The notes under the pieces: model-generated | Seen by the model: the letters and a program-made list of their open reading frames with translations, nothing else | Databases searched by the model: none | Told to the model about the DNA's origin: nothing | Made by a program: the position numbers and the translations under genes | Source of the DNA: Chloroflexota bacterium | GTDB taxonomy: Bacteria > Chloroflexota > Dormibacteria > CF-121 | Assembly: GCA_005889345.1 (NCBI GenBank) | Contig: VBFR01000185.1 | Location: 1-55,814, forward strand | Length of the DNA stretch: 55,814 nucleotides | Direction of reading: 5' to 3' | Shown: in pieces, positions 35,841-55,814 of the stretch | How the letters are laid out: each line of letters begins with the position of its first letter | Numbering within the stretch: position 1 is the stretch's first letter

Positions 35841-35854
35841 ACCCAGTGTACAAG

Positions 35855-35942: not shown

Positions 35943-35963
35943 CCTTGGCCCATGCTGGCCGGC

Positions 35964-37151: not shown

Positions 37152-37154
37152 GGG

Positions 37155-37197
37155 TGCGACAGATCAACCGAACTAGACTTGCGACAGATCAACCGAA
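37155..37197 (-). repeat. Two inverted copies of the 18-bp end repeat (right end)
   Basis: TGCGACAGATCAACCGAA at 37155-37172 and 37180-37197; reverse complement TTCGGTTGATCTGTCGCA matches the left repeat at 16/18. Confidence 0.92.
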
Positions 37198-37222
37198 GGT
37201 GCTCAGGGGGCACCAACCCAGT

Positions 37223-37318
37223 TGTAGGGATTCGGCTGAGGTGTCCCATTGGAGCTTCGGCTGATGTGTCTCACAGCTTCGGGTGATGTGTCCCAGCTGG
37301 TTCGGCTGACGCGTCGCA
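37223..37318 (+). mobile_element. Second, transposase-less left end of a related element
   Basis: TGTAGGGA + four diverged 18-bp repeats at 37231, 37256, 37278, 37301 with the same 7/4/5-bp gaps; no transposase follows. Confidence 0.85.
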
Positions 37319-37394
37319 CTTTCCGGGGGGCTGATCGTTGGCGAACAGACGTGTGTGTCCGATGCTGTGGACTGGACTATTAGCGACAACCATA

Positions 37395-37422
37395 TTGACA
37401 AATGCGAACGTGCGAGTAGTGT
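37395..37422 (+). promoter_or_regulatory. Putative sigma70-type promoter of the regulator gene
   Basis: TTGACA (37395-37400), 16 bp, TAGTGT (37417-37422). Confidence 0.45.
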
Positions 37423-37538
37423 GGCGAAGTACCGAGCGAGGCGGCGAAGGGTGCAGGCAGGACGTTGAAGGGATAAGCGCAGGCATCGCGCTCGCGAAGC
37501 ATGCGCGGGGCGGCCCGATGGGGTGAGGGGAAGCCAGG

Positions 37539-40436
37539 GTGAGGGAAGCGTCGACGGCGGTCGTGTCAGCAAAGGTGCTGATTCCCCAGGTGCATTCCCT
37601 TGCCCGCGAGCGCGTCGATGCCGTCCTCGCCCGAATCTGGCAGCATCGCGTCGGGCTCGTCGTCGCACCGGCGGGATCGGGCAAGAGCACGCTGCTGGCC
37701 GGCTTCGCCGCCTCGGCCAACGTGCCCGTCGCCTGGTACCGAGCCGAGAGCTGGGACGCGAAGACCACCACCCTGCTGAGCCATTTGCATTCCGCGTTCA
37801 CCGCGGCCCTGGGCTCCATCCCGGATGGCTGGGACTCCGTCGAGGCGGCGGCCCGAGCGCTCGAGTCCTGGTCGGGACGGCGCGCCGTGCTGATCATCGA
37901 TGACCTTCACACGCTCGAGGACAGCCCGGCCGAGCGCACGCTCGAACGCCTCATCGACTACGCCCCGCCAAGCATCGCCTTCTTGATCGGTTCGCGCGCG
38001 CTGCCCGGCTTCAATCTGTCGCGTCTGCGCGTCTCGGGATCGCTGCTCGAAATCGGCAGCGAGGACCTGCGCTTTCGTTCGTGGGAGGTCGAGCGCCTCT
38101 TCCGCGATTTCTATCGCGCTCCGTTGCCCCCCGAAGAGCTCGCTGAGCTCGCGCGCCGCACCGAGGGCTGGGCGGCCGGCCTGCAGCTGTTCCACCTCGC
38201 GACCCGCGGCAAGTCGCCCCAAGAGCGACGGCGCATTCTCACCGCCCTCGGCAGCCGGTCGCGGCTGACCCGCGAGTATCTGACCCGCAACGTCCTCGAC
38301 CAGCTGCCCGCCGAGCTGCGCTGGTTCCTGGTCCGGACCTGCGTCCTGACCCGGCTGACCGGGTCAATTTGTGACACATTCCTCGATCGCAGCAGCAGCC
38401 AGCAGGTGCTCGAGGAGCTCGAGCGTCGGCAGATCTTCACGACGGCGACCGACGATCGTGGCGGCTACCGCTATCACGAAGTGCTGCGCTCGCATCTCGA
38501 ACAAGTGCTCGTGGAAGAGCTCGGTGAGGTGCAGGCCCGGGCCGCCTACCGGAAGGCCGCGAGGCTGCTCGAGGCGAGCGGCGCCTTCCCCGATGCGGTG
38601 CAGGCGTATTCGCGCGGCGAAGACTGGGAGGCGGTGGACCGAATGCTCCATCACCAGGGGGGCGAGCTGCTCGAGGGACCGGACACCTGGATCGATGCGC
38701 TGCCGCCCGCGCTCCTCCGCCAGGATCCCTGGCTGATGCTCGGCAGCGCGCGGCGTCACCGGGCCGAGGGGCGCTGGCGTGAGGCGATCGACGCCTACCA
38801 CCGGGCCGAGCGCGTGTTCGGGTCGAGCGAGGCCGGGCTCATCTGCGCCGCCGAGCGCAAAGCGCTGGCCGGCTGGCTGGAGCCCGCCCCGATGCCGGGT
38901 AATGACTGGGCCGGTCTTTTGCGCAAGGCCGTGGCGCATGACCCGCTCGCCGCCAAGCAATTCGCTGGCCAGTTGCCCGAGGCGACCGGCAAGCTGAGCA
39001 TTGGGGTCATCTGCCTGTTGGCCGGACAAATGGATCAGGCGCGGCGCCACCTGAACGCGGCGGCCGACAGCCGCGACGCCACGGCGGCACTGGCGACGGC
39101 AGCCCGGCTCTGGGCCGGGGTCGCCGCGCTGCTCAGTGGTGACCTACAGGGGGTCTTCGACGTCGAGGAAGCGGCCGAGCGCGCCGAGGCGCTCGGGCTC
39201 GGCTGGGTGGCGCGGCTCGCGCGCGCCGCCCTGGTATTGAGTCAGCGGCCGGGGAGTGCGCGGGAGGCCGAGGGCCTGCGAGCCGCCAGCGATCGCGACG
39301 GCGATCGCTGGGGGAGTGCGCTGATCGGCTTGATGATCGGATGGGCGGCGATCTACGCCGGCGACAACGCGGTGGCGGCCCTCGAGCAGGCGACCGACAG
39401 CTTCCGGCAGTTGGGTGCTGGTGTCCTGGAGGCCTGGTCGCGCGCGCTGATCTCACTGGCCCTCGCCCGCATCGGTGCCCCCGAGGCGCGAGACGCGGCG
39501 CTGCAGGCGGAGAATCTCGCTCGCTATAGCGGCACGCCCGGCGCGCGCTACTTCCCCTACCTCGCCCTCGCCGAAATCGAGCCTGAGCGCGGGGCCGAGT
39601 ACCAGAGCCTCGCGGCCTCCGTGCAAGAGGAGTGCAGCCTCGCGCCCCTGGCCGCCCCCACGCCCGCGCCGGAGAACGTGATTCCCCTGGGTGTCGGTCG
39701 CTCGGTGCCGTCGCTGAGCATTCGGTGCTTCGGCGGCTTCAGCATCGCCATCAAGGGACGCCCGGTCGACCTGACCACCATCAAGCCGCGCGCGCGCGCG
39801 GTGCTGCGGCTGCTGGCCATCCACGCGGGCAATCCCGTGCACCGCGAGGTCCTGCAAACGGCGTTCTGGCCGGACGCCGATGCCGACACCGGCGCGCGCA
39901 ACCTTCATGTCGCTGTCTCCTCCCTGCGGTCGTGGCTCGAGCCGGGTGTCGGCCGGGGCGGGTCATCGCTCGTGCTGCGGGAGGGCGATGCGTATCGCCT
40001 CGCGATCCAGGCTGACGCCGAGGTTGATCTGGTGCAGTTTTCCAGGGCGCTCGCCGCCGCGAGGGTGGCGCGGCTACGCGGCGGGGTGGACGCGGTCATC
40101 ACGCACTTCCAGCAGGCGCTCGATCTTTATGCCGGCGAGCTGTTGCCCGAGGATGGGCCGGCCGAGTGGGCGATCGAACCGCGCGAACGGTTTCGCGCCG
40201 GCGCGCTCGAGGCCGCGCAGGGTCTCGCCGAATTGTTGCTCAAGCAGGGCGATCCCGCGGCGGCGGCCAACGCCTGCGCGACCGGGCTGTGGGTTGATCG
40301 GCTCCACGATCCGCTCTGGAAGCTCTTGATCCAGGCGCGCGAGCAGGCGGGCGATCCCGGCGCCGCCAGCCGAGCACGCCGCGATTACGCGCGCGTGCTC
40401 GAAGAGCTCGGCCTTACCGCCAGCTCGCGCGCTTAG
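37539..40436 (+). CDS. MalT-like STAND ATPase transcriptional regulator with C-terminal wHTH-BTAD (SARP) domain
   Basis: APAGSGKST, LIIDDLH, TEGWAAGL, YRYHEVLR; C-terminal IRCFGGFSI...FWPDAD...RNLHVAVSSLR...ALDLYAGELL. Confidence 0.9.
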   Translation: MREASTAVVSAKVLIPQVHSLARERVDAVLARIWQHRVGLVVAPAGSGKSTLLAGFAASANVPVAWYRAESWDAKTTTLLSHLHSAFTAALGSIPDGWDSVEAAARALESWSGRRAVLIIDDLHTLEDSPAERTLERLIDYAPPSIAFLIGSRALPGFNLSRLRVSGSLLEIGSEDLRFRSWEVERLFRDFYRAPLPPEELAELARRTEGWAAGLQLFHLATRGKSPQERRRILTALGSRSRLTREYLTRNVLDQLPAELRWFLVRTCVLTRLTGSICDTFLDRSSSQQVLEELERRQIFTTATDDRGGYRYHEVLRSHLEQVLVEELGEVQARAAYRKAARLLEASGAFPDAVQAYSRGEDWEAVDRMLHHQGGELLEGPDTWIDALPPALLRQDPWLMLGSARRHRAEGRWREAIDAYHRAERVFGSSEAGLICAAERKALAGWLEPAPMPGNDWAGLLRKAVAHDPLAAKQFAGQLPEATGKLSIGVICLLAGQMDQARRHLNAAADSRDATAALATAARLWAGVAALLSGDLQGVFDVEEAAERAEALGLGWVARLARAALVLSQRPGSAREAEGLRAASDRDGDRWGSALIGLMIGWAAIYAGDNAVAALEQATDSFRQLGAGVLEAWSRALISLALARIGAPEARDAALQAENLARYSGTPGARYFPYLALAEIEPERGAEYQSLAASVQEECSLAPLAAPTPAPENVIPLGVGRSVPSLSIRCFGGFSIAIKGRPVDLTTIKPRARAVLRLLAIHAGNPVHREVLQTAFWPDADADTGARNLHVAVSSLRSWLEPGVGRGGSSLVLREGDAYRLAIQADAEVDLVQFSRALAAARVARLRGGVDAVITHFQQALDLYAGELLPEDGPAEWAIEPRERFRAGALEAAQGLAELLLKQGDPAAAANACATGLWVDRLHDPLWKLLIQAREQAGDPGAASRARRDYARVLEELGLTASSRA

Positions 40437-41770
40437 TCCCGGACGCGAAACTCGACTTCGGCGAGTGCCACCGATGATGGCGATGCGCCGGCTGGCGCGT
40501 ATACCGACATGATGTGGATCTCGACGAAGGTCACCTGCTTGGCGTCGATCGCATAGAACTGCGCGTTCTTCGCGACCTTGGGATCCTCATCCTTCAGCGT
40601 CAGGTCGGTGGTGGTGCCGTTGGAGAAGACCAGGTGGACGTTGTGGGGCCGCGGCTGCGTGAGGAAATCGTCGGCTGCGGCGGTACCCGCGGCTCCCGCG
40701 TCGAAGCCGATCTGTGCCAGGTCGACCGGATCGTGAAAGGTCACCTTCAGGTACGGTCCGTGGTCGCTGGCCGCCGCCGCCCAGTAGGTATTGATGAACT
40801 TGTCGATCGCGAGGTTCGGGAGATGCCCGGCCGTCGAGGTGCTGGCCGAGGCGCCGGTCGCGTAGACGGCATCGTAATGCGGAAAGATCGCCTTGCGAAC
40901 CGTCGTGACGGCGCTCGTCACGCGATTGACGACCAGGTTGTGGAACGAGGGGACCAGGAGGAAGGCCAGCAGCCCGACGACGATGAGGGCGCCGAGCGCG
41001 AGGCGGACGATCCGCCAGACCATGCCCATGACGTTGGGCGGGCCCACCCGACGCGGCCGCCATCCGGCCTCGCGGGTGCGAACGCCGAAGAGCCTGCTGA
41101 AGAAGCGGCGGTACCACGGCAACCGGACCGCGATCGCCTCATCCAACGAGTTGCCGCAGCGTCGGCAGAAGTGCCGGACCGGATCGTTGCCCTCGCCGCA
41201 CTGGCCGCAGATGAGGTCGCCGGGATGCCGGCGGGTCGGCGGCTCCAGGGTGCGCGGCGCTTGACGTGGACGGGTCACCGACGGCGCCACGGACGTTGGA
41301 CGGCGTGAGATCGGCTCGTCCGCCTGGACGAGCGAAATGGGGGGCGGGTTCCCGGGAGAGACGGGGGCGGCAGGAGCCGCAACGCCGGCGAGGACGGGCG
41401 CCGGTGCGGGGGCGGCAGCAGGGGCCGGCGCGGCGGGTGCGGCAGAGGTCACCGGAACCGTCCACACGACCCGCGGTTCAGGGGCCGGGGCTCCCGCTGT
41501 GACGGGCGCTGGCGCGGCAACCGGGGCGGGCGCCGCATCGGCGTAGGCCGGCGGTGCCGTCTGTTGCGCCTCCTCGATCCCTACCGCGTGCTTGACCCTG
41601 TCGATCAGGCCGACATGGGCCGGCTCCGGTACCGGCTCGGGGGCGGGCGGTTCGGGCTCCGGCTGGGCGACCACGACGCGTTCCCCGGTCCATTCCAGGA
41701 ACTTCCCGCACGACCCGCAGAACGTGTCGCTGTCTTCGTTATGGTGCCCGCACTGCTTGCAGACGATCAC
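40433..41770 (-). CDS. CIS-associated double zinc-ribbon, single-TM protein with C-terminal beta-sandwich (discoidin/galactose-binding-like) domain
   Basis: CKQC..CGSC and CGQC..CRRC, Pro/Ala linker, TM IVRLALGALIVVGLLAFLLV, LAIDKFINTYW...VALAEVEF. Confidence 0.8.
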   Translation of the reverse strand: MIVCKQCGHHNEDSDTFCGSCGKFLEWTGERVVVAQPEPEPPAPEPVPEPAHVGLIDRVKHAVGIEEAQQTAPPAYADAAPAPVAAPAPVTAGAPAPEPRVVWTVPVTSAAPAAPAPAAAPAPAPVLAGVAAPAAPVSPGNPPPISLVQADEPISRRPTSVAPSVTRPRQAPRTLEPPTRRHPGDLICGQCGEGNDPVRHFCRRCGNSLDEAIAVRLPWYRRFFSRLFGVRTREAGWRPRRVGPPNVMGMVWRIVRLALGALIVVGLLAFLLVPSFHNLVVNRVTSAVTTVRKAIFPHYDAVYATGASASTSTAGHLPNLAIDKFINTYWAAAASDHGPYLKVTFHDPVDLAQIGFDAGAAGTAAADDFLTQPRPHNVHLVFSNGTTTDLTLKDEDPKVAKNAQFYAIDAKQVTFVEIHIMSVYAPAGASPSSVALAEVEFRVRD

Positions 41771-42372
41771 GCGCTAGTCACCTCCACAGCATCCGGTACT
41801 TTCGATCGTTTGACAAGCTGGACTTTGTGCGTCACGTGCGCCGGCTTCGCCGCCGCGACCAGCGCGTCGAGCCTCGTGGCGTTGATCGCGGCCGGATCGT
41901 CGACGGCGACCCGAACCATGAGGGCAAAATTCGGCGACCCGGGGAGCGCCTCGCCCGCGGTCGTCGAGGTTGCAATCCCACCGGTATCGATGATCTCGAC
42001 GGTGCCGCCGGTGAGGGTCTCGATCTGCGCCTTGAGTCCCTTGACGGTTCCGCGCATTCGATAAAACTCGAAAGCAGCCGCCAGCACCGCGCGACGGCGC
42101 TCGACCGACCACGAGTCGTCGAGGGCGAGCCCGAACCAGCTCCCCAGCCATTCCAGGAAGTCGGGCGGGGTCAGCCAGGGATCGAAGTAGGTGGGCAGGT
42201 TATCCATCGTGGCAAAGATCGGCGCCAGTGCCGCATCGAAGGCGGACATGAAGCGCTGGGTGAAGCCGTCTTCCTGGAAGAGGGCCGGCAGCGACTCGCC
42301 CAGCGGGTGCGGGCTGATCAGCGTCCGCACCAGGCCGCGCCGATGGTTGAGCGTCGGAGCCTCCGCGATCAT
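41767..42372 (-). CDS. CIS baseplate/phage tail protein (P2 gpI-like)
   Basis: LPALFQED.F..RF..AFD, YFDPWLTPPDFLEWLGSW, RGTVKGL, KPAH. Confidence 0.88.
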   Translation of the reverse strand: MIAEAPTLNHRRGLVRTLISPHPLGESLPALFQEDGFTQRFMSAFDAALAPIFATMDNLPTYFDPWLTPPDFLEWLGSWFGLALDDSWSVERRRAVLAAAFEFYRMRGTVKGLKAQIETLTGGTVEIIDTGGIATSTTAGEALPGSPNFALMVRVAVDDPAAINATRLDALVAAAKPAHVTHKVQLVKRSKVPDAVEVTSA

Positions 42373-44258
42373 GCGCCCTCCACCAGCACCTGGTGCTCGT
42401 ACGAGTAGACGAGGGCGTGTGGCTCGATGACGAGCCGCTGGACCGCCTGGCCCCGCTGGCCCGTCACCGGATCGGCCCCGAACAACCGGGCGTCCTCGAC
42501 GAGCTCGGTGCCGCGCAGGCCCTGCAGGACGGAGTAGACCTCGCCGACGTGGACCGGCCGGCCGAAGGGCCAGCCATTGCGGTCCGGTCCGCCGGTGACC
42601 GGATGAAAGTAGTGGAAGAGCGCGTCGAGCGCTTCCGCCTGCAACCGTGACGGGTTCGCACTCGCGCGCGGCCGCAGCTTGGCGACCACCGTCACGCCGC
42701 GGTAGACCGGCGGCTCGACGAGGACTCGCGTGCCGATCACGCGGGAGTCCTCGAGGCGGTGGGCGATGCGCTGCAGCGTCTCTTCGGCGGGCACGAGCTG
42801 CTCGAAGCGCAGCCGGCCGTCGGTGCTCCCCGCCGCCGGCACCACCAGAATGCGCACGCCACCGGCGTCTGCGCCGTCGCCCGCGGTGACACATCGGACG
42901 CGCGCCACTTCCGGCGCCGCCTCGCGCGCCAGGTGCTCGTAGTCTTCCATCGTCACGGCTCGATCGCGGGTGCGCAGCACGATGGGGCCGCGCACTTTGG
43001 CCCCCTCGATGTCTTCGCCGTCGACGCCGCCCTCCGCGGCCCGGCGATTTTGCACCCTGGACACGTACGGGATCGATGACTTGAGGACGGTGACGGTGTT
43101 GCGCGCGACGTTCCCTTTCTGGCCGCCCCCGATGAGGTAGGAGCGCAGGCGGAGGCGCGAACCCTTGGATGGCACCGCGCCGTAGTTCCGGAAGGCGCCG
43201 TCGGGCTCGCGGACGCCTGGGCCGAGCTGCACCTCGCCGCTGACAGCGTCGAGCACAAAGTGGCGATCCTCCGCGGTGCTGTCGACGAAATGCTGCGCCT
43301 GCTTCCACTCCTGCCAGCCATCGATGCCGCTCACCTCGAGGACGTTCGCGGCGCCCCCGGGGACGACCGGCCGGTGCTTGAGGGCGAATCGTTGGCCCGG
43401 GACTCCTTCCGACGCCCCAAGGAGTTCGTTCTCCACCAGCTCGGCGTTGACCGCCTCGGCCGTGCCGCCGATGGTGAACGCCGTGAGGCCTTTGATGATG
43501 GGCGAAGCACTGTAAGTCGGTTGATCGGGTTCCGGCTTCAGGACGCGCGCCCGCAGCCACCCGGCGCGTTGCTGCTGGATGACGGATACCGCGTGGCTCT
43601 TCGGGACGTGCAGCACGACGTCGCCATCCCGGTTGAGGCCGCCGGTGCCATCCCGATCGACTTCGCATGGTGACCAGGCGTAGCCATCCCAGGTTTCCCA
43701 GACCACGGCGCACGATGGTACGGCCTCCGAGAGGCCGACCAGGAGCACGTCATCCGGCTTTGGCACCTTGTCGAAGCAGAAGAACGACGTGCGGGCCTCG
43801 AGGGCCTCGGTGTGGTCGCTGACCTCTTTCTCGCCGGCTAGCGACGAGGCGAGACGCGAGAGGGTGCAGGGGACGATCGGCAGGTCACCGATCGTGGTGA
43901 AGACGATCGCCTCGTCGGTCTCGGTGCGAACCGTGGCGGCCTGCGTTCCGGGACGGATATGGATGGTCCCTGGTTGCGGGCCGGCCAGCCAGAAGGTGAT
44001 CGCCGCGCGCGCCGCGGTCGGCGGAAAGAGCCGCACGCCGATCAGTTCGAGAAATTTGATGTAGTTGCGCTCGGGGACACGATTCAGCCGGTACAGCACC
44101 TGGTCGGTCATCCAGGCGAAGGTCTCGATCAGCGTGACACCGGGGTCCGACACGTTGTGGTCGGTCCACTCCGGGCAGCGCTGCTGCACGAGGCGCTTGG
44201 CATCGTCGACGAGGTCCTGGAATCGCCGATCGTCGAGGTTCGGGACCGGAAGTGCCAT
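42369..44258 (-). CDS. CIS baseplate assembly protein (baseplate J/Afp11-like)
   Basis: LPVPNLDDRRFQDLVD, PEWTDHNVSDPGVTLIE, RAVTMEDYE, GWPFGR. Confidence 0.93.
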   Translation of the reverse strand: MALPVPNLDDRRFQDLVDDAKRLVQQRCPEWTDHNVSDPGVTLIETFAWMTDQVLYRLNRVPERNYIKFLELIGVRLFPPTAARAAITFWLAGPQPGTIHIRPGTQAATVRTETDEAIVFTTIGDLPIVPCTLSRLASSLAGEKEVSDHTEALEARTSFFCFDKVPKPDDVLLVGLSEAVPSCAVVWETWDGYAWSPCEVDRDGTGGLNRDGDVVLHVPKSHAVSVIQQQRAGWLRARVLKPEPDQPTYSASPIIKGLTAFTIGGTAEAVNAELVENELLGASEGVPGQRFALKHRPVVPGGAANVLEVSGIDGWQEWKQAQHFVDSTAEDRHFVLDAVSGEVQLGPGVREPDGAFRNYGAVPSKGSRLRLRSYLIGGGQKGNVARNTVTVLKSSIPYVSRVQNRRAAEGGVDGEDIEGAKVRGPIVLRTRDRAVTMEDYEHLAREAAPEVARVRCVTAGDGADAGGVRILVVPAAGSTDGRLRFEQLVPAEETLQRIAHRLEDSRVIGTRVLVEPPVYRGVTVVAKLRPRASANPSRLQAEALDALFHYFHPVTGGPDRNGWPFGRPVHVGEVYSVLQGLRGTELVEDARLFGADPVTGQRGQAVQRLVIEPHALVYSYEHQVLVEGA

Positions 44259-44290
44259 CGCTCAGCCTCCTCCTGCAGATTTGTTGTTCG

Positions 44291-44692
44291 TCATGCCGTC
44301 TCCGCCGGGATCACGTAAAAGGGGAATACGAGGTTGCGGGGATCGTTGGTCTCGCCGAGCGCGTAGCGGATGTCGATGTAGATGATGCTCGAGTCCTCGG
44401 TGTCGAAACTCACCAGGACGTCGCGAACCTCGATGCGAGGCTCCCAGCGACGAAGCGCGGCCCGGACGGCCGCGGCCACGCGGGCGGCGGTCTCCGTGTC
44501 GGCGCTGTCGAAGACGTAGTCATGAATGGCGCAGCCGAACTCGGGCCGCATCGGCCGCTCGCCGATGGCGGTGCCCAGGATCAGGCGGATGCTCTCCTCG
44601 ATTTCCTGCTCGCGTGACACCAGTGCGATCCGTCCGGTCGGGTCGGTCCGCAGGGGAAACGCCCAGCCGGAGCCGATGAATTCTTCGCTCAT
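44291..44692 (-). CDS. gp25/GPW-like baseplate protein (Afp9-like)
   Basis: GSGWAFP, IRLILGT..GERPMRPEFGC, RWEPRI, NLVFPFY. Confidence 0.93.
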   Translation of the reverse strand: MSEEFIGSGWAFPLRTDPTGRIALVSREQEIEESIRLILGTAIGERPMRPEFGCAIHDYVFDSADTETAARVAAAVRAALRRWEPRIEVRDVLVSFDTEDSSIIYIDIRYALGETNDPRNLVFPFYVIPAETA

Positions 44693-45021
44693 TGCGCGAT
44701 TACCTTCGTCTGGCCCGCCGACCCGATCATCATGGGCGTGCCGGTCGGCACGCAGGTCCCGGCCACCGGAGGCAAGGCGAGCAACACCGGCATCCCACCA
44801 ACGAGGACCTTCGTGCTGCCGGACGGGATGATGCCGCTGACGCACGGACCATTCGCAACCGGCGGTGGGGGAAAGGCGCAGCCGGCCACCACGTAAGACG
44901 CGGGGATGGTCACCACCGGCTGACTGCCGACCATCACCTTCGGACTGACGGTCGTGCACTGTCCCTGCCCGCCGTGCATGCAGGTCACCGTGCCGCCCAT
45001 GTTGACGATTGGTCCGGGCAT
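44689..45021 (-). CDS. PAAR-like spike tip protein
   Basis: TCMHGG, AGCAF...GPC, ..C...GQTKV metal-ligand pattern; located between VgrG and gp25. Confidence 0.8.
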   Translation of the reverse strand: MPGPIVNMGGTVTCMHGGQGQCTTVSPKVMVGSQPVVTIPASYVVAGCAFPPPPVANGPCVSGIIPSGSTKVLVGGMPVLLALPPVAGTCVPTGTPMMIGSAGQTKVIAQ

Positions 45022-46820: not shown

Positions 46821-46823
46821 CTG

Positions 46824-47507: not shown

Positions 47508-47522
47508 CGCTTGCCGTTGCTC

Positions 47523-47951
47523 CTATTCCGCGAGAAATCCGTTGTGGGCGAGCTCGAGGGTTTCCGTGGCCACCTGGTTGGCGCCAATGTCGAGCGAGGG
47601 TCCATTCCATTTGACCGGGAAGACGCCTTCGAGGTTCCAGGTCGCGACGGGATTGCCCTCGGTGTCGAGCGCGGCGATCTCCGCGGTCTGCCGCTTGACT
47701 TCGATCTTGAGCTTGGCCATCCAGTTGGCAACTTTCTTGGAATCCTTGTTGACCGGCCGTGTGAGCTTGATGTTCTGGTACTTGGCGCGCCCTGGGATGC
47801 GGTGGACGAAGGCGTTCTCGCCGCCCTCCTTGTACTCAAAGACGTCGTACTCGACCGCGAGCCCGTCGCACTTCGACCAGTTTCCAAGGTCGCCGTGGCC
47901 ATCGATCTTCACTCGGAACCGCAGGCTTTGGGCGTGGGGACTGTCAGCCAT
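47523..47951 (-). CDS. CIS tail tube protein (T4 gp19-like), copy 2
   Basis: GL.VEY..EYKEGGEN...PGR.KY.NIKLTR, FPVKWNGP, ETLELAH.GF. Confidence 0.93.
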   Translation of the reverse strand: MADSPHAQSLRFRVKIDGHGDLGNWSKCDGLAVEYDVFEYKEGGENAFVHRIPGRAKYQNIKLTRPVNKDSKKVANWMAKLKIEVKRQTAEIAALDTEGNPVATWNLEGVFPVKWNGPSLDIGANQVATETLELAHNGFLAE

Positions 47952-47961
47952 CGTCTCCTCC

Positions 47962-49944
47962 TCAGCGCAGGTCGGTCAGGAAGCCCGCGCGCTCCCGATC
48001 GACCAGTAGTTCTGTTTTCAGCCGGGTGCGGATCCGGTCGTAGAGCTTGCCGGCGAGCTCGTCCATGTCCGTCTCGGCGGAGGAGTGGCTGCCCAGGGGT
48101 GAGGCGACGCCGCTTATCGTGGAGCCGGCCGCGCTGGCGGCCGATGAGCCTGCGGACGAGGCCATGCTCCTCGCACCGGATGAAATCGAGTCGTACCAGG
48201 CGCCCTGGACGGTAGACGCCCCACCATCCGTGGGAGATTCGGTGGACTCCGACTCCGCTTCGCCAGCGGTCTGCGTTGTGCGCTGCACCGCGACGACGCG
48301 TGATGGCGCCAGCGGGAGCCTCGCTGATGTCCCTCGCTCCCCCTGCGGGGGTGAGTCGGCGTAGGGGGTGTCTTCGCTCGCTCTCATGACATGAAGCTCA
48401 CGCCCTCCTTGCTGCGGTTGGTCGAGGTCGGGAGCATCGCTCGTCCGCTGCACGAAGCCCGGGCTCGCCAACGGAAGCGCCATACCCTCGACCTGCGGCG
48501 GTTCCGCGAAGGCGCCGTCGCTCGCCCTCATCACCGGGACTGCCTGCGGGTGATAGGGCTGCTTGCTCTCCGTGGAAGGAACCGCCCGTTCCCCTTGCGC
48601 CGAAGGCTCGGCATAGGGCATAGAGGCACTGGTCGACGCCGCTCGTTGGGCCGTCACCGTCGGCCGTAGCGGCCGGGCGCCGACGAGCGGGGCGATCACA
48701 GTGTCTCGACTGGATGCTGGTGAGGCGGTGGCGACGCGGCCCGGTGATTCTGACACCAGCGGCCACGTCGACGGTGAGAGATTCGCAAGGGCGACCGGCG
48801 GCGAGGACGGCAAGGCCGGCGCAAGACGCTGCAGGGCCGACGGCTCGGACGGCGACGCATCATCGGCGGCCTCTGCCAGGGACGTCGCGCTCAGCTGGAC
48901 CGACGGTGCTCGCGCCGGGATCGATGGGCGGGCGAGCGGCAAGGCCAGGCGGGGACCATCAACGGCGTCAGTCGAGGGCGGGGGCGGCGCGCCCGGCAGC
49001 GACGCTCTCCATTCCGTGACGCCAGACGAGAGCTCCACCGGAGCCGTCGGAGCTGTCGGAGCCGTCGGAGCCGTCGGAGCCATCGGAGCCAGGGGTAGTC
49101 CGATTGCCACCCGCTGCGCCACCGCGTGCGTCGGCAGTGGTCCAACCGGGGATGCGTCGATCGGCGCCGGCGTCACGGAGGAGGCGTCGATCGAATCGCG
49201 GCTGCCGGCGGAGACGTCAATCGGGTCCTTCTCCCTCTGGGGTGCCGGAGCGAGGGGGAGTTCCGCGCGCTGCACGCTGTGGTCCGGAACCTGCCTGATG
49301 GGGGCTCCGAGGCCCATCCGTCGCGACTGACCCAGCGTGAGACGCTGGGCCGGCACCAGCGCCGGCGCGGCGTCGGATGGCTCATCGGTCGGGGTCGAGG
49401 TGGCAAGAGCAGCCGACACGGCTTTTGACCGCTGTGCCACGGGAGCGATCGGCGCCGGATCGGCGCCTGGGGGCAGGCTGGTCAGTCGCTGCGTCACGGG
49501 CTCCGGTGCAACTACCGGAAGCTCGACGGCGGCGGCCGGAGGTGCGCTCATGGGAACAGGGGTGGGCCGCGCCAGGTCGGGCGCGGCCTCATCCCCATCC
49601 CACTCCCCCGACTCCGTTACCGCGCCGGCCACGCTGCGCTGCAGGCGTGGGCGCGGGATCATGGCCGGGCCGTCGCTGCGTGTCGTCGGCCGGGCCAGGG
49701 CCAGGACCAGACCTGGTGGTGCGTCGGCGCTGACCTGATGGCCCATCGTGCCAGTCGTAACCGATGGATCCTGATGGGTCGCCAGGTCATCGCTGAACTC
49801 ATCACTCGGTGCGGTGAGCGGGTGCGCGCCAACGAACCGCTGGATGGGCGGCAATCCCGCCCAGTCCCGGCGGATGACGGGCGCCGGCACCGGGCGCGGT
49901 CCCTCCGCCGCCGGTGCCTCAACCTTCCGTCGAAACGGCCACAT
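47962..49944 (-). CDS. CIS-associated low-complexity Pro/Ala-rich protein with repeated QR motifs
   Basis: About 11 xQR motifs, LPLA repeats, ordered C-terminus DMDELAGKLYDRIRTRLKTELLVDRERAG; position between the two tube genes. Confidence 0.8.
   Translation of the reverse strand: MWPFRRKVEAPAAEGPRPVPAPVIRRDWAGLPPIQRFVGAHPLTAPSDEFSDDLATHQDPSVTTGTMGHQVSADAPPGLVLALARPTTRSDGPAMIPRPRLQRSVAGAVTESGEWDGDEAAPDLARPTPVPMSAPPAAAVELPVVAPEPVTQRLTSLPPGADPAPIAPVAQRSKAVSAALATSTPTDEPSDAAPALVPAQRLTLGQSRRMGLGAPIRQVPDHSVQRAELPLAPAPQREKDPIDVSAGSRDSIDASSVTPAPIDASPVGPLPTHAVAQRVAIGLPLAPMAPTAPTAPTAPTAPVELSSGVTEWRASLPGAPPPPSTDAVDGPRLALPLARPSIPARAPSVQLSATSLAEAADDASPSEPSALQRLAPALPSSPPVALANLSPSTWPLVSESPGRVATASPASSRDTVIAPLVGARPLRPTVTAQRAASTSASMPYAEPSAQGERAVPSTESKQPYHPQAVPVMRASDGAFAEPPQVEGMALPLASPGFVQRTSDAPDLDQPQQGGRELHVMRASEDTPYADSPPQGERGTSARLPLAPSRVVAVQRTTQTAGEAESESTESPTDGGASTVQGAWYDSISSGARSMASSAGSSAASAAGSTISGVASPLGSHSSAETDMDELAGKLYDRIRTRLKTELLVDRERAGFLTDLR
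49039..49090 (-). repeat. 9-bp tandem repeat (about 5.8 copies) encoding APT
   Basis: cggagccgt-type units. Confidence 0.9.
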
Positions 49945-49947
49945 ATC

Positions 49948-50112
49948 CTACGACTCCTGCTCTTCCGCGAGGCGCCGATTGATGCCGGCGATCTCTTCGA
50001 CGACGCGCTGGCGGACCGGATGCTCTAGATCGAGAATCTCTTCGAACGACCAGTGCAGGTGATACGCCACGTACGCGATCTCCTCGAAGAGGCGGTCGGT
50101 CGCGTACGTCAC
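49948..50112 (-). CDS. Small CIS-associated protein (DUF6760-like), 54 aa, absent from the ORF track
   Basis: Manual translation MTYATDRLFEEIAYVAYHLHWSFEEILDLEHPVRQRVVEEIAGINRRLAEEQES; GTGA overlap with the upstream gene. Confidence 0.88.
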   Translation of the reverse strand: MTYATDRLFEEIAYVAYHLHWSFEEILDLEHPVRQRVVEEIAGINRRLAEEQES

Positions 50113-50528
50113 AACCCCCCCAGGCGACCACCTGCCATGTCTACGGTGAACTGGTGCTTGCAGTCCGGACAGGTGACGGCCGCCTGCGTGTGCCCCTCCT
50201 GGTTGATCCTGCGATAGAGGTCCTGGAGGAACGCGAGGTCGGAGGCGAAGAGCCCTTCGATGGTCCCGGAGGTCACCTGCGGCACGGTGCCGAGCCTGGT
50301 GACCACCCGGGACAGCAGCAGGACCGTCAGGTAAGCCTCGTTGTCGCGCACCCGTGGGTCGCGCTGGGGGAGGATCTCGTCACGAGCGGTCGCCAGCCGC
50401 ATCACACCCTCGCGATGCACCGTCCCGGCCTCGTCGACGTAGCCGCGCGGCAGAGCGAAGGCGAATTCGGTGTGAAGTGGAGCGGAGGTCGAACGCTCGA
50501 CCTCCGCCATGCTGGATACCGGACTCAC
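50109..50528 (-). CDS. CIS tail assembly chaperone-like protein with C-terminal CxxC
   Basis: TEFAFALPRGYVD, MRLATARDE, LFASDLAFLQDLY..IN, CPDC. Confidence 0.85.
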   Translation of the reverse strand: MSPVSSMAEVERSTSAPLHTEFAFALPRGYVDEAGTVHREGVMRLATARDEILPQRDPRVRDNEAYLTVLLLSRVVTRLGTVPQVTSGTIEGLFASDLAFLQDLYRRINQEGHTQAAVTCPDCKHQFTVDMAGGRLGGL

Positions 50529-50986
50529 TTGACCCGCTCGAAGCCTTCCATGACGATCGTGGCTTCCTCAGTGACAACCTCGTTGGACCCCGCCTTGAGC
50601 GCCCCGGTCGTGAGCTTGGAGGGCCAGGCGTTGACGAAGTTCCAGCGTGCGATCTCGCCGGCTTCGTAGTCGTAGAGGATCACCGACCCGTTCTTGCGGG
50701 CTTCCTTGACCTTGCCGTCCAGCGCCGCCTTGTGCCACTTGTAGAGGTCCATCGAGACGTTCTTGGCTCGCTTCAGCGTCAGCGTCGGCGTCTTGTGCGC
50801 GCCCGGGATCTTCTTGATGATCAGCTTGCCGTCGGGGCCGTTCTCCTTCAGCTCGGTGACATCCATCTCGGAGGTCAAGCCGCCAACCTCGGTGAACTGT
50901 GCGATGGTGGTGCCGTCGATCTCGATCGCGAAGTTACGTGCGGCGATTGCGTCGTTGTTCGAAACATTCGGAACGCCTGCTGCCAT
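50525..50986 (-). CDS. CIS tail tube protein (T4 gp19-like), copy 1
   Basis: F.IEIDG, FTEVGGL, RKNGSVILYD, RWNFVNAWPSK. Confidence 0.94.
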   Translation of the reverse strand: MAAGVPNVSNNDAIAARNFAIEIDGTTIAQFTEVGGLTSEMDVTELKENGPDGKLIIKKIPGAHKTPTLTLKRAKNVSMDLYKWHKAALDGKVKEARKNGSVILYDYEAGEIARWNFVNAWPSKLTTGALKAGSNEVVTEEATIVMEGFERVK

Positions 50987-50996
50987 CTATCCCTCC

Positions 50997-52526
50997 TTAT
51001 TCGCTGAGCGATGTGCCGCCCGAGAACTGGGCGATCTTGAAGACGACGAACTCCGCGGGTTTGACCGGGGCGATCCCGATCTCGACGATGAGCTGGCCCG
51101 CGTCGATCGTCTCCGCGGTGTTCACCTCGCCGTCGCATTTGACGTAGAACGCTTCGCTGGGCGTGGCTCCGAAGAGCGCGCCGTCGCGCCAGACGCGGAC
51201 CAGGAAGGCGCTGATGGTGCGCTTGACCCGTTCCCAGAGCGCCATGTCGTTGGGCTCGAAGACCACCCACTGGGTGCCCAGCAGGATGGAACCCTCGATG
51301 TAGTTGAAGAGCCGGCGGACGTTGATGTACCGCCACGCCGGATCGCTGGAGAGGGTGCGCGCGCCCCAGACCCGGATGCCGCGACCGGGGAAGGCGCGAA
51401 TGACGTTGATCCCCTGCGGGTTCAGCAGGTCGTGCTCGCTCTTGGTGACCTGCAGCTCGAGGGAGATGGCGCCGCGGACGACTTCATTCGCCGGTGCCTT
51501 GTGCACGCCGCGGGTGTCGTCGCTGCGCGCCCAGATGCCGGCCATGTGGCCGCTCGGCGGAACGAAATTCGCCTGGCCCGCGAGCGGATCGAAGACCTTG
51601 ACCCACGGCCAGTAGAGGGTGGCGTACTTCGAGTCGTAGCCCGCCTTGTCGACCCGCCACTCGCGGATCTGCTGCGCGTTCAGCCCGGGCGGGGCATCGA
51701 GAATGGCGACCCGGTCGCCCATCAGCTCGCAGTGGGCGATCATCGCCAGCTGTACGGCCTTGACCTGGTCGGCGTCGATCATGCCGCGCTGGTACGCGGC
51801 CATCAGGTCGGGGACGCTGAGCATCGTGACGGTGTCGACGGCTTCGAGACCGGCAAATCCGGTGCGGTCGGCAGAGTTGCCCACGTACTCGTCCGGGGTG
51901 ACCCGGGCGGGCATCGTGGCGCCGCCGCCCTGAAGCGTAACCTTGCCCGGGGCGGGGACCTTCTCCAGTGCGCCGGCGGTCCCGATCTCCTCGAGCTGGA
52001 TTAGCTTCGACGCGGTCTTGACAGCAGTGACGACGTTGTTCTTGCCTTTGCGCGTCGTGACGTTGTCGTACTCTTCGCGATCCTTGCCGCGCGTGATGAT
52101 CAGCTTGAAGGTGTCTTCCGCGGCCTGCGAGGCCTCAGCGACCTCGACCTGGATGTCGTTGCCGGGCTGACCGCCCTCCAACGCCAGGACGCGATATCCG
52201 GCCAGCGACTTGTCCTTCGCGCTCGCCAGCTCCGCCTGGGCTGCGGGGGCGTGGCCGTCCGCGCCGATGCGAACGATGTACGCGGACCCACCGCCGTTCA
52301 GGAAGTAGCCATAGACGGAGTGCGCGAGGTACGACCCTTCAAGGAAGCCACCAAACGCCTGCGAGAACTGGCTCCAGTTGGTGACCAACGTTGGGCTGTT
52401 GACGGGACCCTTCTCGGCGAGACCGACGAAGGCCGCCGTTGCGGTCCCAACACCCTCGATCGGGCGTGAGCCGGCTTCGACCTCCTCTACGTATACACCG
52501 GGCGATAAGTAATTGGGCATGGGCAA
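50997..52526 (-). CDS. CIS contractile tail sheath protein
   Basis: YLSPGVYVEE, PPSGHMAGIWARSD..RGVHKAPAN, VWGARTL, YINVRRL, VFEPND, APVKPAEFV. Confidence 0.96.
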   Translation of the reverse strand: MPMPNYLSPGVYVEEVEAGSRPIEGVGTATAAFVGLAEKGPVNSPTLVTNWSQFSQAFGGFLEGSYLAHSVYGYFLNGGGSAYIVRIGADGHAPAAQAELASAKDKSLAGYRVLALEGGQPGNDIQVEVAEASQAAEDTFKLIITRGKDREEYDNVTTRKGKNNVVTAVKTASKLIQLEEIGTAGALEKVPAPGKVTLQGGGATMPARVTPDEYVGNSADRTGFAGLEAVDTVTMLSVPDLMAAYQRGMIDADQVKAVQLAMIAHCELMGDRVAILDAPPGLNAQQIREWRVDKAGYDSKYATLYWPWVKVFDPLAGQANFVPPSGHMAGIWARSDDTRGVHKAPANEVVRGAISLELQVTKSEHDLLNPQGINVIRAFPGRGIRVWGARTLSSDPAWRYINVRRLFNYIEGSILLGTQWVVFEPNDMALWERVKRTISAFLVRVWRDGALFGATPSEAFYVKCDGEVNTAETIDAGQLIVEIGIAPVKPAEFVVFKIAQFSGGTSLSE

Positions 52527-52740
52527 TCTCCTCCCTGTTGATGGCCGTCAGGTACGGTCCGAGCGTCGCATCGGCGCTCGTTCGCCACAAGGGACGAGCG
52601 GGCCAGTGAACGGGTAAGCAGCGATGCCCGAAGGGACGGCCGGCCGTGCTCGAGGCTGCCCGTTCAGGCAGGAACTTGACCCCAAGGGCTGCCCGCAGGC
52701 GACTTGTGAGGCGCCGCCGCAACCGCAAATCTAGAGGGCG

Positions 52741-53571
52741 ATGATCCAGGACGTGGATGAGTCCCTGCGCGCCCTCGTAAAACGAGATGCCCTCAATGGA
52801 TCAAAGGCCGACATCGCCTTCGATGCGCCCAATAAAGAGTGGTCGTCGCGGCGCAATACGCCCACAGTCGATCTGTATCTCTACGACATCCGCGAGGACC
52901 TCGAGCAGCGTGAGGTGATGTGGGAGGACATTCGCGGCGATAGCCGAGATTCCCGATTGATCACCGAGCGCCGGCCGCCGCCACGTCGCTTCAAGCTCTC
53001 CTACCTCGTCACGGCGTGGACGCAGCGGCCTGAGGACGAGCACCGGCTCCTCTCGTCGCTGCTCGCGTGCTTTTTGCGCAATCCCATCATTCCGGCCGAC
53101 GCGTTGAGCGGGGTACTCGCCCAGGCGCGGCAGCCGATCCTCCTCAACATCGCGCTCCCACCACCACAGGACCGGTCGATCTCCGACGTCTGGTCGGCAC
53201 TGGGCGGCGAGCTCAAGGCCTCCCTCGATCTAGTTGTGAATGCGCCGTTCGAGGTCAACCTGGCGATTCCCGCCGGTCCGCCGGTCCTGGAAGAGCCCCG
53301 TTTCAGCTTCGCGGGTCCCGATGGCGAGAGCGAGGACGCGACCACGCCGGCGGCGCGTGGCGGCAGAGCTCGTCGAGGCGCGGTTGCTGCCGGTGCCGCG
53401 AAGCCGGTGGGTGCCCCTGGACCCGGCGGGCCAAAAGCCTCCGGGCGGCTGCAGCCCGGCGAGCCGGCCAACAAGCCTGGTGTGCCGCCCGACCAGGAAG
53501 AGATGGTTCGCTCGGGGAAAGAGAAGCAGCCCGGCCGCATTCTGCGCATTCGCGGCGTCAACCGCTCGTAG
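52741..53571 (+). CDS. DUF4255/Pvc16 (Afp16-like) CIS cap protein
   Basis: MIQDVDESLRAL, FDAP..EW, LYLYDIRED, LSYLVTAW...DEHRLLS. Confidence 0.92.
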   Translation: MIQDVDESLRALVKRDALNGSKADIAFDAPNKEWSSRRNTPTVDLYLYDIREDLEQREVMWEDIRGDSRDSRLITERRPPPRRFKLSYLVTAWTQRPEDEHRLLSSLLACFLRNPIIPADALSGVLAQARQPILLNIALPPPQDRSISDVWSALGGELKASLDLVVNAPFEVNLAIPAGPPVLEEPRFSFAGPDGESEDATTPAARGGRARRGAVAAGAAKPVGAPGPGGPKASGRLQPGEPANKPGVPPDQEEMVRSGKEKQPGRILRIRGVNRS

Positions 53572-53575
53572 GCGA

Positions 53576-55726
53576 ATGAGCGTACATTCGGGCGTTCTCC
53601 CTCCACCGCTTGCGGGGGAGGGTCGGGCTGGGGGTCTCGATGAGTCACTGACCCATGTGCTTCGGCGTCTCGAGTTAATCGAGGCGCGCGTCCGGGCCGC
53701 CGTCGCTCGCCGCCGTGCGACCGATCCGGAGACCGACGATCGTTTCCGCGGGCTTTACATCTCGCAGGGTCATGTCGACCGACTACTCGCGGACAAATCG
53801 GTCCCGGCGCCACCCGACGCTGGCGCAGCGAAGGCGCGCGACGAGGCCGAGGCCGCGGCTGACGCCGCCGAGCAAAACGGTGCCGACCTTCGGCTGCGCC
53901 GCCTGGCCCGCACCTTCAATCTGGACGAAATCGACGTCGAGCTGCTCTTGATCGCGATGGCCCCGGACGTCGACGCGCGCTTCGAGCGCCTCTACGGCTA
54001 TCTGCAAGATGACGTCTCCCGGCGCCGCGCCAGCGTCGGACTCGGGCTCGAGTTGTGCGGTTTGCCATCGAGCAGCGCCTATGCACGGAGCCGTCTCGCG
54101 GCGGGCGCTCCCCTGGTGGACGAGTACCTGGTGCAGGTCGAAGAGAACGAACGGCCGGTGCTGACGCGGCCGCTGCGCGTCCCGGACCGCGTGGCGGCAC
54201 ATCTGCTCGGGAGCGATATTCCGGATCCTGTTGTCGCCGCCCTGGCGTACCAATGCGAACAAGCCAAGCCCGACCAGGCGGCAACCCTGGTTCGCTGGAT
54301 GACGGAAGAATCTCCCTCCCCCTCTGGGGGAGGGCAGGGTGGGGGCAGGCTTGCCTACATCCGTGAACGCCCCGGCGCATCCGGAGCGGCGCTCGCCTCG
54401 AGTGCTTTCGCACAGCTAGGCCGTCCGACGCTTGCGTTGGATCTCGAGCGCCTGCGGAGCGAAGATGACGTGCCGCTCGTGGCCGCCTTAGCGGCTCGCG
54501 AAGCCGGTCTCACGGGAGCCGGCATTGTGGCGGGTCCGGTTGAGGTCCTGATCGCCAGGGGACTCCCCGCAGTCCGCGCCTTTTCTGAGATGCCGGCGCT
54601 CGTGGTCCTGGTGGGCGCGCGAAGCTGGGACCCGGGCTGGGCGCGCGACGTCCCCTTCATCTGCGAGGCTCCCATCCCCGACGCCCTCCAGCGCGCCGAG
54701 CTCTGGCGCCGGAATCTCAACGGCGACACACCGCCTGACCTCGACCTGGCCGGCACGATGGCGCAGTTTCGCCTGACCGCTGAGCAGGTCCATCGCGCGG
54801 CGCGGGCGGCGCGGATGGACGCCCACGCTCGCGAGATCCCGCTCAACGAAGAGGAGCTCAAGGCCGGCGCCCGCGCCCAGAACGCCGCCGGCCTCGAGCG
54901 GTTGGCGCGCCGCATCCAGCCCGCAGTCGACTTTGCCGACCTGGTTCTGCCCCCCGATACGATGGCACAGCTCAAGGAGCTCCTGACGCGGGCGCGCTAT
55001 CGCGAGCAGGTGCTCGATGTCTGGAAGATGGGCGGCCCGTCCGCGCGGCGGCGTGGGCTAACGGCGTTGTTCGCCGGGCCCTCGGGCACTGGTAAGACGA
55101 TGGCGGCCGAGGTGCTCGCCAGCGAGCTCGGTCTTGACCTGTATACAGTCGACCTGGCGACCGTTGTCGACAAGTACGTCGGCGAGACCGAAAAGAACCT
55201 CGACCGCATCTTCGCCGAAGCGGAGCGTATCAACGGCGTGATCCTCTTCGACGAGGCCGATGCGCTGTTTGGCAAGCGTTCCGAGGTCAGCGACGCGCAT
55301 GACCGCTATGCCAACGTCGAAGTGGCCTACCTGTTGCAGCGGATGGAGCTGTTCGACGGCATCGCGATCCTGGCGACCAACCTTCGGGCCAATCTGGATG
55401 AGGCATTCACGCGCCGGTTGGATTCCCTGGTCGATTTTCCAGAGCCCGAAGCGGAATATCGTCGGCGGCTCTGGGAGCGCAGCCTGGGGAGCGACATGCC
55501 TCGGGCCGCCGAACTCGACCTGGATTTTCTCGCAGAATCGTTCAAGCTCTCTGGCGGCGCGATCCGCAACATCGCGGTGGCGGCCGCCTATGCAGCTGCC
55601 GAGGCCAAGCACCCGCTTGATATGGGCGACCTGGTGCGGGCTACCCAGCGCGAGTATCTGAAGCTTGGCCGGATGGTCGTCGAATCAGAGTTCGGGCCCT
55701 ACTACGGGTTCCTGATCCAGGCCTAA
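53576..55726 (+). CDS. CIS AAA+ ATPase (Afp15/Pvc15-like)
   Basis: YGYLQDDV, ALFAGPSGTGKTMAAE, VVDKYVGETEKNL, LFDEADALFGKR, DRYANVEVAYLLQRME. Confidence 0.94.
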   Translation: MSVHSGVLPPPLAGEGRAGGLDESLTHVLRRLELIEARVRAAVARRRATDPETDDRFRGLYISQGHVDRLLADKSVPAPPDAGAAKARDEAEAAADAAEQNGADLRLRRLARTFNLDEIDVELLLIAMAPDVDARFERLYGYLQDDVSRRRASVGLGLELCGLPSSSAYARSRLAAGAPLVDEYLVQVEENERPVLTRPLRVPDRVAAHLLGSDIPDPVVAALAYQCEQAKPDQAATLVRWMTEESPSPSGGGQGGGRLAYIRERPGASGAALASSAFAQLGRPTLALDLERLRSEDDVPLVAALAAREAGLTGAGIVAGPVEVLIARGLPAVRAFSEMPALVVLVGARSWDPGWARDVPFICEAPIPDALQRAELWRRNLNGDTPPDLDLAGTMAQFRLTAEQVHRAARAARMDAHAREIPLNEEELKAGARAQNAAGLERLARRIQPAVDFADLVLPPDTMAQLKELLTRARYREQVLDVWKMGGPSARRRGLTALFAGPSGTGKTMAAEVLASELGLDLYTVDLATVVDKYVGETEKNLDRIFAEAERINGVILFDEADALFGKRSEVSDAHDRYANVEVAYLLQRMELFDGIAILATNLRANLDEAFTRRLDSLVDFPEPEAEYRRRLWERSLGSDMPRAAELDLDFLAESFKLSGGAIRNIAVAAAYAAAEAKHPLDMGDLVRATQREYLKLGRMVVESEFGPYYGFLIQA
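53597..53634 (+). repeat. REP-like palindromic element, copy 1, in frame within the ATPase gene
   Basis: ccctccaccgc-tt-gcgggggaggg hairpin followed by tcgggctggggg. Confidence 0.7.
54312..54345 (+). repeat. REP-like palindromic element, copy 2, in frame within the ATPase gene
   Basis: ccctccccc-tct-gggggaggg perfect 9-bp stem followed by cagggtggggg. Confidence 0.75.
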
Positions 55727-55814
55727 GCCTCTTCGTCGGTCGGGGCCTCTTCCTCCTCGGAGGCACGCTGAACGAATGCGCCTTGGACTGACTCGTCCGC
55801 CTCGTCCTCCTCGG
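55723..55814 (-). CDS. C-terminus of an acidic QR-motif protein (possibly DUF4157/eCIS-core), truncated by window edge
   Basis: Manual translation ...EEDEADESVQGAFVQRASEEEEAPTDEEA*; stop overlaps the ATPase stop. Confidence 0.55.
   Translation of the reverse strand, partial: EEDEADESVQGAFVQRASEEEEAPTDEEA

Follow-up and report, generated by a model that had tools for sequence, protein, structure and literature searches.

Behind a tRNA-Arg(TCT) gene on contig C155 (VBFR01000185.1) of the Chloroflexota genome G000, we found a solitary left end of an insertion sequence (IS) at 37223..37324 (+ strand). It opens with the tip TGTAGGGA and is very likely the dead remnant of an older element of the IS481 family, of a type that we call IS-B; the genes that follow it, a SARP-like regulator and a contractile injection system (CIS) cluster, would be native neighbours and not carried DNA. 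The stretch examined, hereafter the window, is this entire contig of 55,814 nt and ends at 55814. G000 is a metagenome-assembled genome (MAG) of 306 contigs, 88% complete and with 65.8% G+C, and the records of its close relatives are titled as soil MAGs of Candidatus Dormibacterota. Throughout, related genomes are treated as kin and not as independent observations. Our counts take in two unpublished genomes (G062 and G063), and locus L033 also comes from an unpublished genome.

The position of the second end is best described from the tRNA outwards. The tRNA-Arg(TCT) gene, the target of the insertions, was called by ARAGORN at 35764..35840 (+ strand), and the same tRNA adjoins the regulator in relatives. 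An intact element, IS-A (35847..37205, + strand, 1359 bp, tips TGT...CA), starts with its TGT at 35847, 6 nt after the tRNA CCA. It is flanked by the two copies of a 16-nt target duplication, GGGGGCACCAACCCAG, of which the left copy (35831..35846) forms the 3' end of the tRNA and the right copy (37206..37221) is a displaced tRNA tail. These are the only two copies in the window, against 0.03 expected. After the right copy comes one T and then, at 37223, the TGT of the second end. Once IS-A and one duplicate are removed, this end lies 7 nt past the tRNA CCA, so that the distances of 7 and 6 nt given in a preliminary description of this DNA, made from its sequence alone, agree with the tRNA and duplication coordinates. 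Counted from the discriminator base, the second end lies 10 nt downstream, as do the ends in genomes G003, G006 and G023 and on contigs C160 and C260. Because the IS-A duplication ends 1 nt before the TGT of the stump, IS-A must have inserted where an IS-B-type left end already sat.

The same description had reported that the second end is TGT-initiated, with four repeats and 7/4/5 spacing, and both a pattern scan and an alignment bear this out. Run over the 55.8-kb window with up to 1 mismatch, the repeat pattern TTCGGNTGANNNGTCNCA returned 10 sites against 0.07 expected. Four of these are the 18-nt repeats of the IS-A left end (starts 35855, 35880, 35902 and 35925, spanning 35855-35942), two are the inverted repeats of the IS-A right end (starts 37155 and 37180, spanning 37155-37197), and four belong to the second left end (37231-37248, 37256-37273, 37278-37295 and 37301-37318, then CTTTCC). 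In either left end the repeats start 25, 22 and 23 nt apart, leaving gaps of 7/4/5, and the two ends are 85% identical over 92 nt.

G000 contains two sister elements of IS-A: IS-B on contig C204, with 86% protein identity to IS-A, and IS-C on C260, with 65%. Positions 37255-37309 match the first 55 nt of C204, which holds the intact IS-B, at 55/55 positions, and soil contigs carry an IS-B left end that agrees with all 87 nt of 37223-37309. Past 37309, C204 reads CTTTCCCCC-ATG into the transposase gene, whereas the window reads CTTTCC-GGGGGG. Judged by this comparison, the stump appears to be the left end of an IS-B-type element, broken off 3 nt short of the IS-B start codon, and tblastn of the sequence downstream of it detected no transposase. 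The next 18 nt (GGGGGGCTGATCGTTGGC, 37325..37342) match the repeat in 11/17 positions at a 25-nt offset and the tRNA tail only in GGGGGC; they may be what decay has left of a tail copy or of a fifth repeat. Reading these 18 nt as an intact tail copy was considered and rejected, GGGGGC being the only match. Sequence common to G006 and G023 resumes at TTGGCGAACAGACG (37338), 14 nt past the stump. Homology to an intact end, the usual target position and the resumption of native DNA are thus all found here, as in a solo IS end. A promoter that the preliminary description had placed after the second end was not recovered: a scan of 37150-37650 for consensus promoters and terminators found neither, and the stretch shows only a TTGACA box at 37395-37400.

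This box lies in the native upstream region of the regulator (37343..37538, + strand), which can be aligned with IS-free relatives, and it is kept in these. Pfam matches confirm that a regulator and CIS genes, instead of a transposase, stand behind the second end, as had been described. The regulator (37539..40436, + strand, 965 aa; AAA, Trans_reg_C and BTAD) appears to be a chromosomal gene and not cargo. In a search of 61 genomes (G000 and 60 relatives) with its protein sequence it was found in 23; besides G000 itself, these include 18 of its 29 congeners. The CIS cluster (40433..55726, by Pfam) is syntenic in G001, G002, G006, G025 and G035. Its minus-strand genes encode a Zn-ribbon protein, Tail_P2_I, baseplate J, gp25, a VgrG-like spike, the tube and the sheath, and its plus-strand genes encode Pvc16_N and an AAA ATPase. 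By Pfam content, which places the system above the level of subtype, this combination of sheath, tube, baseplate, spike, Pvc16_N and ATPase is the gene set of an extracellular or Streptomyces-type CIS.

The gene order at the assembled junctions is EamA, (a 243-aa protein), tRNA-Arg(TCT), the regulator and then the CIS genes through the AAA ATPase. In five genomes of the genus (G001, G002, G013, G025 and G028), the conserved upstream box of the regulator follows ~10-130 nt after tRNA-Arg, and the tRNA-regulator junctions contain no end array and no repeat at up to 4 mismatches. In G036, which belongs to a second genus, tRNA-Arg is inverted and stands beside the regulator, also with no end array. 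CIS genes lie behind the regulator in the end-free G001, G002, G013 and G025. Contigs from soil sequencing runs, which may include the MAG's own source sample and are therefore not independent, likewise show empty-site alleles, in which the tRNA tail continues into the upstream region of the regulator. Identity ranks agree on both sides of the tRNA: G006 is the closest genome (EamA 86%, regulator 93%), and G001 has 77% and 84%. The G+C content is 0.63-0.71 across the CIS region versus 0.63-0.67 upstream, with no clear step at the relic, and none of the 15 open reading frames (ORFs) scanned in 37539-55726 matched an integrase family. Taken at the level of sequence and synteny, the regulator and the CIS appear to be old chromosomal neighbours of tRNA-Arg. 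The preliminary description had suggested comparing relatives for the CIS block at tRNA-Arg; the block is present there in relatives without the ends, an outcome that it had itself named as speaking against a mobile block.

No matching right end had been spotted in the window, and our pattern scans agree, since they found no right-end-like site outside IS-A and no third copy of the tRNA tail in the window, including 37325-55814. The wider search for a right end that had been proposed also came back empty: none up to 55814, none unassigned in the MAG and none past the CIS in relatives. Right-end pairs in the whole MAG are those of IS-A, IS-B and IS-C and one at the start of C226 (C226:1-60), where an IS-C right end is followed by a copy of a tRNA-Ala tail. 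Contig C69, which is syntenic with the G006 DNA past the CIS, has no right-end pair, and no end arrays were found on the far side of the CIS within the fetched stretches of G001, G002, G006 and G035. Nor did G000 yield any cassette framed by both ends of such an element.

The tRNA-Arg site has been hit repeatedly. Of the 13 genomes in which the assembly covers the junction, seven carry insertions there (G000, twice, and G003, G006, G022, G023, G024 and G032), and these differ among genomes in flanks and structure. In G003 a mini-IS retains a left end, 31 nt of the gene and 12 nt of right tip, and a tail copy comes next; the IS of G006 has lost internal sequence and has a matching tail of 14 nt; in G023 left ends are fused into one array; G024 holds an IS, and G022 and G032 have solo left ends. 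The nested duplication and this independent occupation support two independent insertions at nearly the same position, as first proposed, and they support the view of the second end as a relic of an older IS, next to which IS-A arrived later.

Three of these sites deserve separate mention. In G006 (L019, C23, 2100-3500), tRNA-Arg, the internally deleted IS and the tail copy are inverted relative to EamA and the regulator. The six-repeat array of G023 (L020, C6, 7840-9930) consists of B-type repeats 2-3, a hybrid, and A-type repeats 2-4 with a truncated gene, an arrangement that appears to show recombination between tandem left ends; its repeat 1 is split by a different IS of ~1.2 kb. In G022 (L025, C85, 4130-6620), a tail-like copy, three TadE/TadE/TadG-like genes (2.1 kb) and the native regulator promoter come in this order after the solo left end, and the TadG-like gene was found in 1 of the 30 genus genomes searched. 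We considered these Tad-like genes as possible cargo and rejected this, since the tail-like copy precedes the genes, which lie outside the former IS.

Four tRNA genes are occupied in G000. Apart from tRNA-Arg(tct), with IS-A and the stump, these are tRNA-Thr(tgt) (C11:3910-4240), followed by an IS-C-type left end and ~50 codons; tRNA-Thr(ggt) (C160:3130-3310), followed by a solo left end, also of IS-C type; and tRNA-Ala(cgc) (C260:4350-5860, minus strand), followed by IS-C and then another solo left end. On C260, CCCGCTCTCTAGACC stands between IS-C and the solo left end and resembles the tRNA-Gly(gcc) tail seen in G023. The mismatched flanks of C260 and C226 indicate either that IS copies recombined or that the assembler swapped paths.

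Association with tRNA genes extends well beyond this genome. Within the bacterial family, ARAGORN called a tRNA directly before the left end in 8 of 11 transposase loci, and a tRNA 3' half could be recognized by eye in two more. A species-representative collection yielded 56 loci in MAGs labelled Dormibacterota, Chloroflexi, Acidobacteria, Acidimicrobiia, Actinomycetes and others; six of these, with <200 nt upstream and no tRNA called, were set aside, leaving 50 assessable. A same-strand tRNA ends 53-283 nt before the transposase start in 39 of the 50, mostly at 100-102 nt, and none was found in the other 11. Perfect duplications starting in the acceptor stem measure 16 nt in L027 and L030 and 15 nt in L028, L032 and L033, and the insertion point lies 9-10 nt past the discriminator (7 in G022). 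By the positions of its ends, this IS group recognizes tRNA genes, with a 15-16-nt duplication that rebuilds the tRNA 3' end on the left. A more distant branch with 45-55% identity (L083-L089, L095, L096 and L106, in Acidimicrobiia and Actinomycetota MAGs) also lies behind tRNA genes; there the gene starts 267-283 nt after the tRNA versus ~100 nt, which suggests a longer left end.

To place the stump among its kind, we took a census of left ends in 43 genomes of the family. A pattern of repeats 2-4 returned 44 arrays in 24 genomes, and the reversed control pattern returned 0; 42 of the 44 arrays were found again and classified. A full-length transposase frame follows 11 of the 42, and internal deletions were seen in two (G006 and G004). 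Behind 14 arrays, the window's stump included, there is no transposase at all in at least 1000 nt downstream of each. One array retains codons 3-21, six (at five loci) keep N-terminal pieces ending at codon 55-165, and eight are cut by contig ends. Among the 23 decayed left-end arrays with enough sequence downstream, 15, the shortest relics, break at ~-9 to +60 nt of the transposase start, a span of ~5% of the element length; remnants of the gene too short for the tblastn threshold may have been missed. The search for right-end pairs gave 17, distributed over 12 genomes, and 0 in the control: 12 with a gene, three at contig ends and two relics. Decay is therefore one-sided, with 23 decayed left-end arrays versus 2 right-end relics. 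The layout of an IS, its duplication and an older left end recurs on C260 and in G016. Survival of the left end may reflect that a deletion removing it would have to stop within 9-10 nt or damage the tRNA gene, but this reason does not account for the clustering of break points at the inner edge of the array.

The history of the site could then be as follows. The regulator and the CIS would already have stood at tRNA-Arg in the ancestor of the genus. An IS-B-type element would have landed in the gap that separates tRNA-Arg(TCT) from the native promoter region of the regulator, 10 nt beyond the discriminator base, and would have lost its transposase gene and right end through a deletion that we infer to have run from 3 nt before the start codon to about the right tip. 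Its sister IS-A would have entered 1 nt nearer to the tRNA, giving rise to the 16-nt duplication; this insertion and the deletion may have occurred in either order. A resident end only 1 nt away did not keep IS-A out, which gives no hint of target immunity. At present the relic is most probably inert.

Several points weigh against a remnant flanked by native genes. A distant right end may lie beyond the searched sequence, since the window stops at 55814 and the MAG, in 306 contigs, reaches 88% completeness. The 87-nt identity makes the relic and IS-B a two-in, two-out repeat, with an assembly fork inside the second end where 37255-37309 equals the start of C204. The pairing of tRNA-Arg and IS-A with the relic and regulator rests on the MAG contig, on an unbroken unique run and on synteny in 12 relatives, and no single read or contig seen spans it; by the pieces and depth shown, the fourth repeat of the relic and the junction at 37324/37325 occur in no soil-run contig, and portions lacking soil-contig cover are not counted as evidence. 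The flank before the relic (CCAACCCAGT) differs from those of relatives, and with a match to the tRNA tail restricted to GGGGGC in the 18 nt after it, the right end point of the deletion is not fixed. The first of these points, together with a left end that is complete in tip and four repeats and is followed by non-IS genes, and a contig that stops before any far boundary, would suit the other reading given in the preliminary description, in which the second end bounds a large non-autonomous transposon carrying the regulator and the CIS. Such a transposon would be moved in trans by the IS-A or IS-B transposase and would have its right end past the contig. We regard this as extremely improbable. 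The regulator stands directly at tRNA-Arg in six end-free genomes (G001, G002, G013, G025, G028 and G036), and CIS genes follow in four of them (G001, G002, G013 and G025); since empty-site relatives carry both at tRNA-Arg, the cargo reading is refuted. The native sequence in common with G006 and G023 picks up again 14-18 nt past the relic, no right end with a target duplication was found up to the contig end at 55814, the right-end pairs of the MAG are confined to the three elements and the start of C226, with none in C69, the fetched stretches past the CIS in G001, G002, G006 and G035 hold no end arrays, and there is no clear G+C step. The remaining points bear rather on the assembly, in which 37223-37309 could belong to IS-B at another tRNA and have been threaded in at the 87-nt repeat. 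Soil contigs do place the identical left end after a tRNA-Lys-like tail and before the IS-B gene start, the first 55 nt of C204 are shared, no soil contig with the relic's own fourth repeat was seen at the pieces and depth shown, and the flanks of another IS of G000 (C260, C226) point to recombination or to a chimeric assembly path. Such an artefact is nevertheless very unlikely. The fourth repeat of the relic, with three differences from IS-B, and the following CTTTCC run unbroken into native regulator upstream sequence, so the left-end fragment beside the regulator is real; in soil contigs of three runs, the IS-A right end and its duplication are followed by the first 30 nt of a left end; and the alternative pairing would move the regulator and the CIS to tRNA-Lys, against 12 of 12 relatives examined. 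Where the stump and IS-B once differed, bubble-popping in the assembler may have removed the difference, and their identity would then be no guide to the age of the stump. The flanks of IS-B and of IS-C do not match, which may reflect recombination between copies or chimeric assembly paths.

A different question is whether solo left ends of this kind are accidents at all. They might be a regular product of the transposase, for example if the right end attacks just inside the left array, or if cleavage is followed by end-joining and the array, covered by protein, serves as a barrier; or they might be kept for some use near the tRNA or the regulator promoter. The clustering of breaks in 15 of 23 decayed arrays at ~-9 to +60 nt of the transposase start agrees with this, as do the tail-like copies that follow the break in G022 and G003 and the 2 right-end relics (3 further pairs lie at contig ends) against 23 decayed left-end arrays. 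The break points, however, vary in their exact position, left ends would likewise tend to survive if deletions extending into the tRNA were selected against, and the insertion of IS-A 1 nt from the relic indicates that the relic confers no target immunity; moreover, the genomes compared are related and the tblastn threshold may miss short pieces of gene. We therefore think it unlikely that these ends are a regular or retained product. Similarly doubtful is the more specific proposal that the transposase makes them by joining the right end, or a break there, just inside the four-repeat array, so that the element deletes its own body. If true, self-deletion would leave a standard footprint behind the tRNA and would account for both the clustered breaks and the excess of 23 versus 2.

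IS-A offers the fullest view of the living element. Its transposase is a single ORF of 399 aa (35952-37151) that scores 285.7 bits over aa 13-304 on NCBIfam NF033577 (IS481 family transposase; cut-off 224) and matches the Pfam families rve, rve_3, HTH_32 and LZ_Tnp_IS481. The TGT and CA tips of IS-A and its duplication of 16 nt (15-16 nt in relatives) also accord with IS481 elements. On these grounds IS-A is assigned to the IS481 family, and the relic would belong there too by homology of its ends. A profile search of the transposase against the PDB gave weak matches only (E ~0.003), to the IS21-type IstA of IS5376 and to retroviral integrase cores, which we do not use as evidence. The last ~95-100 aa of the protein (36837-37148) lie outside the IS481 model and are strongly conserved among six aligned copies; Pfam at E up to 10 matched no family in the last 104 aa. 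This C-terminal part could be involved in target recognition or in the assembly of a multi-site complex.

The tRNA-Arg gene itself varies at its 3' end. In G000 it encodes CCA (GGGGGCACCA, 35836-35846), which is not encoded in the five empty-site genomes of the same genus (G001, G002, G013, G025 and G028; e.g., GGGGGCGCTTC). Among the genomes with IS ends at tRNA-Arg, CCA is encoded in G000 and G032 and not in G003, G006, G022 and G023. The soil contigs contain an empty-site allele with CCAACCC.

Comparison with known systems places these elements within familiar limits. IS481-family members with 15-16-bp target duplications and TGT...ACA tips have been described (Kojima, 2023, PMC10045372). 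The elements studied here resemble the IS481 family of ISfinder in their TGT...CA tips, single ORF, length of ~1.36 kb, 15-16-nt duplication and model score above the cut-off. They differ in their siting at tRNA genes and their arrays of four plus two repeats; PMC10045372 mentions neither tRNA nor subterminal repeats, and a limited full-text literature search, covering parts of PMC12584985 and PMC9569102 among others, returned no description of tRNA targeting by IS481 elements. Unlike an intact IS481 element, the feature at 37223..37324 is a dead left end only. It is like any solo or truncated IS end in having one end, no transposase and native flanks, whereas the relics of this group differ from ordinary ones in being one-sided, in lying at a fixed distance from tRNA genes and in breaking at the inner edge of the array.

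Two further comparisons concern the ends and the setting. Tn7-like elements carry several transposase-binding repeats per end, more on one side, and make a 5-bp duplication; they insert site-specifically just downstream of a conserved gene without destroying it, and they pile up at their attachment sites. The elements here resemble them in multi-repeat ends, insertion at a safe site and pile-ups, and differ in having a single 399-aa transposase without TnsC/TniQ-type partners, a duplication of 15-16 bp, three times longer, and no sign of target immunity. tRNA-linked islands with tyrosine integrases are similar in showing a direct repeat of the tRNA 3' end beside accessory-looking genes. Here, in contrast, no integrase was found in the ORFs scanned, the repeat is the duplication of a 1.36-kb IS, whose two copies, the only ones in the window, both flank IS-A, and the CIS stands at the tRNA in relatives that lack the repeat.

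For these soil Dormibacterota, the CIS would accordingly be an old, vertically inherited chromosomal locus and not a mobilizable payload, and the tRNA-end repeat beside it should not be taken as an island boundary. The relic is an ordinary, if neatly preserved, one, and the IS group that produced it is of greater interest. In several soil phyla, an IS481-type element with a single gene and multi-repeat ends reminiscent of Tn7 or Mu inserts at a fixed nucleotide distance from tRNA genes. This tRNA-targeting group stacks at the same sites without target immunity, leaving behind mostly left-end stumps that share a region of breakage.

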